Under the pieces are notes generated by a model, which saw nothing but the letters and a program-made list of their open reading frames with translations, ran no database searches and had not been told where the DNA came from. The position numbers were made by a program, and so were the translations under genes. Shown here piece by piece: positions 14,437 through 16,632 of a stretch of DNA of 64,000 bases. The stretch lies in NCBI GenBank assembly GCA_035280845.1, contig DATEFB010000012.1:9093-73092 (forward strand), in the 5' to 3' direction. The stretch is from Candidatus Saccharimonadales bacterium (lineage in GTDB: Bacteria > Patescibacteriota > Saccharimonadia > Saccharimonadales > EFPC-124). Positions within the stretch are counted from its first letter, which is position 1. Every line of letters begins with the position of its first letter.

Positions 14437-16632
14437 TTACCGCTTATTAAGTCTGGCCGATATTGTTCCAGAGAAATCACCAGCCGGACTGCTACTTAAC
14501 GCAGTTCCCGAAATGATAAAGCTGCCGCCGGTTGCCTCGTGTGCCACATGCTCTCCAGCGTCTTCCAGCACTTGGACGTCAATGTCTTTGCGCGCCTGGT
14601 AGCCGCAATAATCACCAACCGCGCCATACACATGCAACGAAGCCTGGTTGCGAGCCTGTGCTGCCGCATAATGACCGGCGTCGCCCATGACTTCCAAGCG
14701 CGCCATCTTGTTTGCCTTTGCTGCGGCATAGTTACCAACCGAACCGTTTACCTTCACAAGAGCCAATCCACCGATCTTGTACCCTGCATAATCGCCAAGG
14801 TTGCCATGGATCACCAGCTCACCGTGCTCCAACCCGGCACCCATATAGCCCAATTTGCCTTGGAGGCTTTCGGGGATTGTCAGTTCGACAAAGGTGTTGT
14901 CGTTCATGCGCTCGGCCAGCAGCCTTGAGAAAAGTTGGCCAACGCGGTCGAGGCTTATGTCGCCCATCCGCTCCTGCAAGTGCGTCACGAAATTCTCTAC
15001 CTCTGCATTCCAGAAGCCGGCAATATGGCGTACCGTCAGTGCCTCGCCCATCTGGGACTGCAAGGCTTCGACAAGCACCTTGGGGTATTCGGAAGCATGT
15101 CCAGCCTCGACGAATGACTGCTGGAAGCTGTATGCACCGGTTGTATAGAGGATATCTTTAAAACGAGCGGCGGTGGCCTCATATTCAATCAAAACCTGTT
15201 CGGGAGTTATACGGACGGGCTCATCCCAGGCCTCACCCGGATATGCCTGCCAACGGGCACGCGGCTCAGCGAGGCCACTGGCTGGCGGCTCATAACCGAG
15301 CGGCGCATCCCTGCCCAAGCGAATGGCTCTCGCACCTAATACGCGCTCAGTTTTTAGTACGGGAAAAGTCCTGGTGTGTACAGGCGCTTCGACCGATACG
15401 TCCAGGTTAAGGAATGGCTCGAGGTTACGGCTACGTGCGGGGTGCCGCAGCTTATCGAGCGTCTTTGTAAGGATCTGACGGACACGCTCCCGCGTTATGC
15501 CATATACCATTCCAACTTCATCGAGCGTGCGCTCAACGCCATCGGTAAGACCGAAGCGAAGGCGGATTACACCAGCTTCACGCTCGCTTAATGTCCCCAG
15601 GGCTTCAGCAATAACATCAACGCGCATGCGCTCCATAACAATATCCTCAATCGAAGCCGTATCTGTATCGGCGACAACTTCTTCCAAAGCGAGCGCGCTT
15701 ACCTCACCATCCACCTCGATCTCTTCGTCGGCAGCACCAAAACTTACCAGATGATCAATAAAAATCGGATCACGGTATTTGTCCCACTCCTGGAAATTAG
15801 CCAGCTCCTCAGGGGTGCGACCAGCGTCGTTGTCGGGATCGTACATGGCCGACTGCATTTCTTCGACGCGGTTTATAGGAATATACAGGCCTGGCTTCTC
15901 GTACGCCTTAACATGCTTGGCCAGTGCGCCACGCAGGCCATTTATAGCATATGAACGGAACCGCACCGGCTTACCGATGTTGTCGCCCCGCGTATGGACC
16001 ATGCCGGGTTTAAAATTGCGCACAGCCTTAACAATTGCTTCGTTTACCACCTGTACGCGCTCGTCGTAGTCGGCATAGGGCGAGCGAAGACGCGTCATAT
16101 CACCAGGCGCCCATGAGTAGTCCGATCCCTGGATGTGCATTTTGGTCGAGCGCGGTTGCTTGCGTGGCTTAACACCAGCATCGTCGGTTTCATCGGGAAC
16201 CCGGCCCATGCCCGGCCGTATGTTCATAGACAGTCGGGCAAGGTACGTGGCGTTACGCAAATTACATTCGATGAGGACACGTTCGGCTTCGCGGCCGGCG
16301 TCGAATCGGGCACGAAGTGCGTCAAGCTGCTGAAGGTCACGCTTGAGCGGTCGCTTTGCCACTTCGACCTTCTTCTCAAGTTCTTCAAGAAGTGCCGCTG
16401 CCGCCAGCCCATCCTGAATAACAGCAGCGAGCTCGTGCTCCTGTTCAGCAGTCAGATACGTTGTACGGCTGCCCGTATGTTCGGCAAGCCTGTCGCCCAT
16501 GACTTGTAGGTAGTGTTCGCTGGGTGATCCTTTCTCGTAAAGAGTCCACTTAACTGCCGTCTCGTCGGCTTCGTCGGAAGCGGTGCGCATTATAGGATCC
16601 CAGGGATCAAAGTCCTGTGTTTCGTACGACAT
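14437..16632 (-). CDS. RNA polymerase sigma factor, sigma-70 family (RpoD-like) with ~325 aa C-terminal extension containing GXGXG-type beta-helix repeats
   Basis: 731 aa; region 1.2/2.1 ([31 protein letters not shown]), region 2.3-2.4 ([13 protein letters not shown]), region 4.2 ([51 protein letters not shown]) ending near aa 405; then ~20-residue repeats [13 protein letters not shown] / [14 protein letters not shown] / [14 protein letters not shown] / [14 protein letters not shown]. Confidence 0.8.
   Translation of the reverse strand: [731 protein letters not shown]
14503..14850 (-). repeat. intragenic ~60 nt periodic DNA repeats encoding the GXGXG beta-helix units of the sigma factor tail
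   Basis: recurring gc.gc.g.ataat.acc...cc elements (gtagccgcaataatcacc / gctgccgcataatgacc / gctgcggcatagttacc / accctgcataatcgcc). Confidence 0.5.

Follow-up and report, generated by a model that had tools for sequence, protein, structure and literature searches.

The gene analysed here lies between rpsJ and rplC and encodes a 731-aa protein in which a sigma-70 part is followed by a disordered linker, a helical domain and a C-terminal beta-helix (Table 1). Its product is 100% identical to the NCBI/ENA entry 'sigma-70 family RNA polymerase sigma factor [Candidatus Saccharimonadales bacterium]'. The promoter and terminator scan around the gene gave results at chance level. Since the 87 bp that separate it from rpsJ contain no promoter-like site, co-transcription with tuf-rpsJ is plausible. 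No second sigma factor gene was found in the 64-kb window, i.e. the whole stretch of DNA analysed, and Rfam matched only a tRNA elsewhere. Two related loci have a similar setting: one copy (P0007) is located between nusG and rplK and another (P0006) directly upstream of rplJ. Three of the six loci compared lie inside ribosomal or transcription operons, a position commoner for housekeeping genes than for stress sigma factors. No neighbor gene that could encode a separate anti-sigma factor or a partner is conserved across the six loci, which fits a regulation in cis.

Table 1. Features of the fused sigma gene (nucleotide positions in the window; residue numbers of the 731-aa product)
Feature	Positions	Strand	Basis or remark
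Whole gene: sigma-70 family protein (731 aa) with C-terminal helical/beta-helix module	14437..16632	-	ORF list
Stop codon	14437-14439	-	
N-terminal ~58 residues, acidic, predicted disordered, poorly conserved	16459..16632	-	no region 1.1 domain
Sigma regions 1.2-2.1 (residues 59-135)	16228..16458	-	BLASTP to canonical RpoD P0016
Family-specific variable insertion between regions 2.1 and 2.2 (residues ~136-172)	16117..16227	-	gap relative to RpoD
Sigma regions 2.2-2.4 (residues 173-250)	15883..16116	-	RpoD alignment; TIGR02937
Region 3, reduced and acidic (residues 251-340)	15613..15882	-	RpoD collinearity
Sigma region 4 (residues 341-402), -35 helix 'TRERVRQ', 'KLRHP' end	15427..15612	-	Pfam Sigma70_r4
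Disordered linker (residues 403-475)	15208..15426	-	pLDDT <50 at 403-474
Conserved Trp motif at linker end (residues ~456-475)	15208-15267	-	
Helical domain (residues 476-578), five helices	14899..15207	-	confident in both models
Right-handed GXGXG/FwdC-type beta-helix (residues 579-728)	14449..14898	-	
Five exact 20-residue repeats G-x-x-G-(D/N/H/E)-(Y/H)-... (residues 610-709)	14506..14805	-	

A continuous gene with a family of relatives

The fused gene is real and conserved in a group of Saccharibacteria. The same ORF was found, letter for letter, in two independent assemblies and at least 54 representatives (clusters) of diverged homologs show the same domain order without interruption, which bears out the initial annotation in that neither a stop codon nor a frameshift separates region 4 from the tail. 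The fusion is also not a one-off. The alternative that two genes were joined artificially, through the loss of a stop codon or a frameshift introduced in sequencing or assembly, is ruled out by these observations and we consider its probability to be negligible. Proteins that looked like standalone tails also argue against it, being in fact fragments of longer cluster members, which are fused proteins of 671-863 aa. Likewise, carriers of the tail that seemed to be devoid of a sigma part retain sigma remnants and, in the searched set, the helical and beta-helix module was never found without them.

The family is small. An exhaustive HMM search recovered 47 representatives among 1.84 billion at E<1e-30, and its distribution is therefore patchy. 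When the tail was used in a word-index search and as a diversified profile, a single additional fused protein came up besides proteins of the FwdC type; hence, the family is visible only by exhaustive HMM search. A scan of genome contigs with one narrow peptide pattern returned solely an unrelated beta-helix locus from Pirellulales. The taxonomic names known for two family members are Saccharimonadales and Saccharibacteria. Databases label these proteins 'sigma-70 family' or 'rpoD', region 4 alone being recognized. Conservation within the family indicates that every module is under selection and that the linkers between modules are variable.

The sigma part and its predicted promoter contacts

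The N-terminal half had been described as an RpoD-like sigma-70 factor. In BLASTP, it is collinear with the canonical RpoD of Saccharimonadales (P0016) from region 1.2 through the C-terminus, residues 53-133 aligning with residues 434-508 of the latter, and the best Foldseek matches are actinobacterial SigA chains (~380 columns, E~7e-14). The RpoD alignment also places about 325 further residues beyond the canonical end, as initially stated. The best matches of the sigma part are models of the RpoD/SigB type and TIGR02937 scores above its cutoff (52.1 versus 42.9 bits, residues 183-397). The resemblance to RpoD thus holds, but for a non-standard factor. Among the Pfam domains that the initial annotation proposed to search in the 731-aa protein, Sigma70_r4 (PF04545) matches region 4 (E=1.4e-16, 60.1 bits versus a cutoff of 24.1), neither Sigma70_r2 (PF04542) nor Sigma70_r3 gives a match and GXGXG (PF01493) remains below its gathering cutoff; region 1.2 is matched weakly at residues 57-76. 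RpoD equivalog models score far below their cutoffs: 79.8 versus 354 for TIGR02393, 92 versus 572 for PRK09210 and 124 versus 711 for PRK05901.

The modules differ in conservation and predicted order. Residues 1-58 have a pLDDT <50, a mean column conservation of 0.23 and a charge of -7, and they are followed by confidently predicted helices at residues 62-134. The insertion between regions 2.1 and 2.2, which amounts to ~55 aa and is predicted to be disordered (pLDDT <50 at residues 139-177), has a conservation of 0.18. Region 3 is collinear with that of RpoD but shorter, with a charge of -19 and a pLDDT that is low in part. Region 4 is the most conserved stretch of the protein (0.63).

To compare residues at contact positions, 52 family members and 51 canonical RpoDs from databases were placed in one alignment; numbering follows E. 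coli sigma-70, and at each key column the residues of the 51 RpoDs are those expected. The equivalents of the -35 contacts R584, E585, R586, R588 and Q589 are conserved in 39-49 of the 52 members. Given that the recognition helix of region 4.2 is retained, a TTGACA-like -35 element is most likely read by the sigma part in the same way as by RpoD. Core-binding residues of region 2.2 are also retained (D403 in 40/52 members, Q406 in 47/52), from which we infer that binding to core RNA polymerase is most likely preserved. N383 is kept as well, and E407, which is invariant in the canonical RpoDs, is lost. By contrast, the melting determinants Y425 and W434, the -12 readers Q437 and T440 and also R436, all invariant or nearly so in the 51 RpoDs, are not kept, Y425 being replaced by A or V and the positions of W434, Q437 and T440 being variable. 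Aromatic residues nevertheless persist at Y430 of the -11A pocket (F/Y in 43/52) and at W433 (W/Y/F in 41/52). This changed surface for -10 reading and melting would therefore lead to the recognition of a different promoter set or to a need for help in opening DNA. Judging from the loss of W434, Y425 and Q437, promoter melting could even have disappeared altogether.

A tail made of two domains

The initial annotation had placed a beta-helix in the last ~110 residues of the tail. The beta-helix is indeed present; it is preceded by a second, helical domain and both are tethered to the sigma part by the disordered linker. Within the family, these linkers vary from 43 to 138 aa, with a median charge of -6. 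The Trp motif at the linker end occurs in most members and has a Trp-x7-Trp spacing, W461, Q462 and W469 being invariant in nine sequences. The helical domain carries the motifs HIxxFWN and LLAERMxDxD; it has no match in Pfam, NCBIfam or PDB sequences and was seen only within sigma-fused proteins.

The initial proposal of a GXGXG-type beta-helix with five repeats of about 20 residues was supported. The domain, of ~150 residues, is a right-handed beta-helix with turns of ~20 residues, and the repeat anchors at residues 610, 630, 650, 670 and 690 are spaced by exactly 20 residues. It is a homolog of GXGXG/FwdC domains by sequence comparison, under the curated cutoffs, and resembles FwdC/FmdC more closely than it does glutamate synthase. 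For PF01493, the protein itself scores 13.5-17.2 bits versus a cutoff of 32.5 and seven of nine tails match (best E=9e-6). TIGR03122 matches all nine tails (best 1.3e-20), the protein itself reaching 36.1 bits versus an equivalog cutoff of 130.65, and the family profile matches the solved FmdC with E=2e-14.

Possible roles and comparison with known systems

We propose, with roughly even confidence, that the fused protein is an alternative sigma factor, specific to its lineage within Saccharimonadales, that derives from a primary-like (group 1/2) sigma and whose tail is a regulator or a docking module acting in cis, much as the initial annotation had suggested. In this scheme, the sigma part would bind core RNA polymerase and read a TTGACA-like -35 element, and its altered -10 surface would select other promoters or require help in DNA opening. 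The flexible acidic linker of ~70 residues, with its Trp-x7-Trp motif, would permanently tether an acidic helical domain capped onto the beta-helix. This tail may fold back on the basic surfaces of sigma-2 and sigma-4 and gate their activity, or it may recruit a partner protein or oligomerize. It would thereby replace a separate anti-sigma factor, by analogy with the C-terminal extensions of ECF41, ECF42 and ECF238 sigma factors. The acidic tail domains (helical domain, -7; beta-helix, -3 to -5 depending on its boundaries; family medians, -5 and -4) contrast with basic sigma-2.2-2.4 (+8) and sigma-4 (+3), and this was counted in favor of the proposal. Acidic charge is common among cytoplasmic proteins, which counts against the charge argument. 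The full-length model has a pTM of 0.40, and contact between tail and sigma part is hypothetical. A bolder version, which we regard as possible but rather doubtful, is that the FwdC-type beta-helix, the helical cap and the Trp motif form a covalent anti-sigma or DNA-mimic gate, i.e. a switch within one polypeptide. Conformational release, linker cleavage or capture by a partner that depends on the host or on growth could throw such a switch.

Other roles would use the same modules differently. The protein could be the housekeeping (primary) sigma of these lineages, with the tail as a structural appendage comparable to the insertions and extensions of RpoD. Its location in rpsJ/rplC, nusG/rplK and rplJ contexts, the plausible co-transcription with tuf-rpsJ, the lack of another sigma gene within 64 kb, the RpoD-like -35 helix and the annotation of a distant member as 'rpoD' on a 371-kb contig would agree with this. 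However, the score of 79.8 versus 354 for TIGR02393, the lack of Pfam r2 and r3 matches, the loss of Y425, W434, R436, Q437 and E407 and the small size of the family all argue against it. Furthermore, a canonical RpoD is known from this order, and in the cultivated S. epibionticum the only true sigma factor is an essential 333-aa RpoD, the fused form being absent (PMC10633639, supplement). We therefore doubt a primary role and consider it unlikely.

The same losses of W434, Y425, Q437 and T440, together with the reduction of region 3 and the far stronger conservation of region 4, would also suit a sigma derivative that no longer initiates transcription and that acts as a repressor, decoy or tether through binding of region 4 to -35-like DNA and/or the RNAP beta-flap. 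The beta-helix would then serve for oligomerization or as a scaffold; such beta-helices have an architectural function in Fwd, Fhc and GltS complexes. Reuse of sigma region 4 has a precedent in Saccharibacteria, in the essential non-sigma protein SEML1_0294. Against this stands the selection on regions 1.2-2.2, with D403, Q406 and N383 kept and Y430 and W433 mostly aromatic, a pattern that would be surprising were region 4 alone important; this possibility is somewhat less doubtful than a primary role but still improbable. Lastly, the beta-helix could derive from, or be a partner of, an FwdC/GltS-type enzyme complex and connect transcription with metabolism, for example through docking or substrate sensing. 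Its closest homologs are FmdC, FwdC and FhcC subunits, but its score is only 36 versus 130.65 bits at the FwdC equivalog cutoff and none of the six loci contains Fwd, Fhc or GltS partner genes. Moreover, we know of no ligand site in the GXGXG/FwdC fold, whose roles, where known, are architectural or in protein-protein contacts. Metabolism is also minimal in Saccharibacteria (PMC12173739), and we find such a metabolic link very improbable.

Should the tail gate or localize the alternative sigma factor that we favor, it would represent a new mode of sigma regulation and provide an entry point for studying how genes are regulated in the candidate phyla radiation. Saccharibacteria are obligate epibionts whose genomes are tiny and whose regulators are very few. 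The covalent switch, if true, would bring the first description of a regulatory C-terminal extension for a non-ECF sigma and the first role in transcription for the GXGXG fold, and it would provide a switch to bacteria that seem to have no conventional anti-sigma partners at these loci. In any case, the plain labels 'sigma-70 family' and 'rpoD' reveal a blind spot of annotation.

Compared with known systems, the protein shares with RpoD/SigA (group 1-2, including P0016) the order of regions 1.2, 2, 3 and 4, the TRERVRQ helix, the 'KLRHPxRS..L..FL' ending and core-binding D403 and Q406, and SigA chains are its top structural matches. It differs from them by the lack of region 1.1, the insertion in region 2, a shorter region 3, the loss of Y425, W434, R436, Q437 and T440, sub-cutoff equivalog scores and the C-terminal extension. 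In FwdC/FmdC/FhcC and at the C-terminus of the glutamate synthase alpha subunit (PF01493; TIGR03122), the beta-helix is part of an enzyme, whereas here it is fused to a sigma factor and preceded by a novel helical domain; its FwdC-level score remains sub-cutoff and the neighborhoods contain no FwdA/B/D or FhcA/B/D genes. Extra domains are also present in other large sigma-70 family proteins (~700-800 aa), namely MzaA, which belongs to the MZA anti-phage system, and helicase-sigma fusions. However, MzaA has its sigma part at the C-terminus (model positions 614-716 of 726), its extra domains being N-terminal. The matches to MzaA involve region 4 only (NF041931, 86.7 bits versus a cutoff of 800; PADLOC model PDLC02203, 48 bits, model positions 574-668) and no defense or phage match was found among the neighbors; a defense-system reading was rejected on these grounds.

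Many ECF sigma factors are known to carry a fused regulatory extension, and we know of none on a primary-like sigma. To our knowledge, every GXGXG beta-helix seen so far is an architectural element of a metabolic enzyme. The initial annotation was aware of no precedent, and no description of a sigma fused to a GXGXG or FwdC domain was found in the searchable literature. The tail joined to the sigma part is probably a built-in regulator or docking module. Close parallels are ECF41 (SnoaL-like), ECF42 (TPR), ECF238 (CorE, Cys-rich) and ECF57 (WD40), which likewise have a C-terminal domain and no adjacent anti-sigma gene. ECF sigmas without anti-sigma factors use such extensions, of 100-200 residues or more, which contact sigma-2 and sigma-4 or bind a partner and gate activity (PMC8999054; PMC3426412). 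The fused protein departs from their architecture of sigma-2 and sigma-4 only with a SnoaL, TPR or Cys-rich extension: it has regions 1.2 and 3, a primary-type region 4, a long disordered linker and a helical plus GXGXG extension that is absent from those described in PMC8999054. Nevertheless, the extensions of ECF42 and ECF57 include a repeat or protein-interaction type of fold, as does the tail of the fused protein.

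A single ORF for the sigma factor and its tail

The sigma gene is one ORF of 731 codons without internal stop in the window, and a database entry named 'sigma-70 family RNA polymerase sigma factor [Candidatus Saccharimonadales bacterium]' matches its product at 100% identity. The initial annotation proposed a fusion of a sigma-70 factor to GXGXG beta-helix repeats, with no stop between region 4 and the tail. This holds: the same 731-aa product is encoded in two different ENA assemblies (contigs of 74 kb and 4.2 kb), and the continuous ORF is kept in eight full-length homologs (32-43% identity, 675-861 aa), with invariant residues in region 4, the linker motif, the helical domain and the beta-helix. 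An artefactual fusion is therefore ruled out. Furthermore, Pfam recovers region 4 (Sigma70_r4, residues 344-397, E=1.4e-16), and the five repeats of about 20 residues noticed initially prove to be strictly periodic. Of the other expected Pfam domains, r2 and r3 have no match in the 731-aa product, and GXGXG is found on residues 564-714 below threshold (13.5 bits for a cutoff of 32.5).

Two AF2 models (full length, pLDDT 67; tail alone, 15 sequences, pLDDT 82, pTM 0.74) concur on the layout of the tail, including the beta-helix anticipated from its repeats. The linker ends with a conserved motif, (R) plus 12 residues (W motif), that recurs in most family members. The helical domain carries the motifs HIxxFWN and LLAERMxDxD and has no detectable relatives. 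Conservation, measured as the column-averaged frequency of the commonest residue in 54 members, is 0.63 for region 4, 0.47 for the W motif, 0.44 for regions 2.2-2.4, 0.41 for the beta-helix, 0.36 for the helical domain and 0.18-0.23 for linkers. The tail domains are acidic, in contrast to the basic regions 2.2-2.4 and region 4.

Tail of the fused sigma factor (residues) and ORFs located between its gene and rplC (window positions)
Feature	Position	Strand	Description
Sigma gene, 731 aa	14437..16632	-	
Linker	403-474		predicted disordered (AF2)
Helical domain	476-578		five helices (AF2)
Beta-helix	581-728		pLDDT >90 (AF2)
Repeat units	starts 610, 630, 650, 670, 690		period of exactly 20 residues
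Convergent ORF, 150 aa	13888-14340	+	no family match
Membrane-like ORF, 90 aa	13525-13797		
DUF3152 protein	12794-13525		N-terminus resembling a signal peptide; HETGH motif
ORFan, 262 aa	12009-12797		

Distribution and genomic context of the family

An exhaustive search of the tail profile against 1.84 billion cluster representatives gave 1823 matches, 47 of them at E<1e-30. Local domain mapping found 54 representatives (median length 688 aa) that share one order of sigma region 2, region 4 and beta-helix, extending the fusion to relatives. Short 'standalone' tails are fragments, their clusters holding fused proteins of 671-863 aa, and in carriers that apparently lack sigma, traces of it persist, for example a degenerate '...KLLRHP'. 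Hence, the helical and beta-helix module never occurs without sigma among these matches. Every module is conserved, and the helical and beta-helix module is exclusive to sigma fusions.

Some relatives depart from this layout. P0124 (1151 aa) has two tandem helical and beta-helix modules, and several members, including P0006, P0123 and P0278 (~860 aa), have an extra extension of ~200 residues past the beta-helix. One relative has a family-type region 2 and no tail: P0041 (411 aa, JGI contig of 3.6 kb) ends in '...DRHSWLKSRTRSI', the exact point where the W motif starts. Truncation or a frameshift could explain this, as could a form that naturally lacks the tail. The sole match of the genome scan, L003 4232-4609 (Pirellulales MAG contig DASYGD010000567.1), is a planctomycete beta-helix-only relative, unrelated to sigma, with 27% identity to tail residues 188-315.

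The two members with source names both belong to Saccharimonadales/Saccharibacteria. Since the cultivated Saccharibacterium S. epibionticum lacks the fused sigma, the family is lineage-restricted.

In the window, the sigma gene follows rpsJ at a distance of 87 bp. The rpsJ-rplC junction of the S10 operon (11194-17043, minus strand), usually contiguous, is interrupted by ~4.9 kb that hold this gene and the four tabulated ORFs. Small ORFs without family match also occur in the tuf-rpsJ and fusA-tuf intervals (17233-17517 and 18910-19548, minus strand), where the gene caller predicts products of 82, 101 and 177 aa on the same contig; ORFans are thus unusually frequent between the str/S10 genes of this organism. 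Neither a defence or phage signal around the sigma gene nor a second sigma gene within the 64-kb window was found. Other members are located between nusG and rplK, immediately upstream of rplJ, beside the ATP synthase operon or in unrelated places; across the loci compared, no neighbour is conserved and a conserved partner gene is absent.

The sigma half and its probable role

Besides a weak Pfam match to region 1.2, the product scores above the cutoff of the NCBIfam sigma-70 superfamily model and far under those of all RpoD/SigB/RpoS equivalog models. BLASTP shows collinearity with P0016, a canonical Saccharimonadales RpoD with all four Pfam sigma domains: residues 53-133 correspond to regions 1.2-2.1 and residues 193-408 to regions 2.2-4.2, including the sigma-70-type C-terminal 'RHPxRS..L..FL'. 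The insertion of ~55 residues (134-192) that separates regions 2.1 and 2.2 is mostly predicted to be disordered. Moreover, the full-length model matches actinobacterial SigA chains (Foldseek, E~7e-14, ~380 columns, 28-30% identity).

We compared residues of 52 family members with those of 51 canonical RpoDs; positions follow E. coli numbering (reference sequence verified against database RpoDs). The -35 readers R584, E585, R586, R588 and Q589 are retained in 39-49 of the 52 members, as are the core-binding residues D403 (40) and Q406 (47) and N383 of the T-7 pocket (45). Position Y430 is F/Y in 43 members and W433 is W/Y/F in 41, while Y425 is replaced by A/V and Y421 by P; W434, R436, Q437, T440 and E407 are not conserved. 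The sigma half is therefore primary-like, combining an intact -35 head with a -10 head that has been remodelled; its core-binding surface is probably intact.

A canonical RpoD, P0016, is present in Saccharimonadales, its gene adjoining polA, and the only true sigma of S. epibionticum is an essential 333-aa RpoD (PMC10633639 supplement). These findings, the lack of a fused form in S. epibionticum and the degraded -10 determinants point to an alternative sigma; that the protein is the primary sigma, with the tail as an appendage, is unlikely. A non-initiating regulator or scaffold based on region 4 is also unlikely, and a metabolic enzyme connected through the beta-helix is highly improbable. 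As an alternative sigma, the protein would bind core RNAP and a TTGACA-like -35 element and may read a non-canonical -10 element. The tethered helical and beta-helix module might control sigma activity in cis, either through a fold-back onto sigma-2/sigma-4 or through partner docking or oligomerisation.

Another essential S. epibionticum protein, SEML1_0294, is annotated 'RpoS' (PMC10633639 supplement), although it consists of HARE-HTH/winged-helix domains placed after a Sigma70_r4 domain. Thus, at least two non-canonical architectures in Saccharibacteria make use of sigma region 4.

Comparison with known sigma fusions

Sigma factors with a fused C-terminal domain are already known as a kind. 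A different sigma fusion architecture is seen in six sigma-70 proteins of 816-887 aa (P0099, P0105, P0106, P0111, P0115 and P0120), which carry DEAD/SNF2-type helicase domains and may be related to the weakly matching MzaA-type models; those with source names, three in number, are all from Arthrobacter. The initial annotation knew of no precedent, and the full-text literature searched contains no description of a sigma-GXGXG/FwdC fusion or of this Saccharibacteria family, whose database annotation covers region 4 only. Its interest lies in the combination of a primary-like sigma, a fold new to transcription and CPR hosts, with a putative function. The nearest analogy in logic would be the ECF sigmas without anti-sigma, whose C-terminal SnoaL, TPR, Cys-rich or WD40 extensions contact sigma-2/sigma-4 or partners (PMC8999054). 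However, the fused sigma is not an ECF, and its helical and beta-helix fold differs from all extensions described there.
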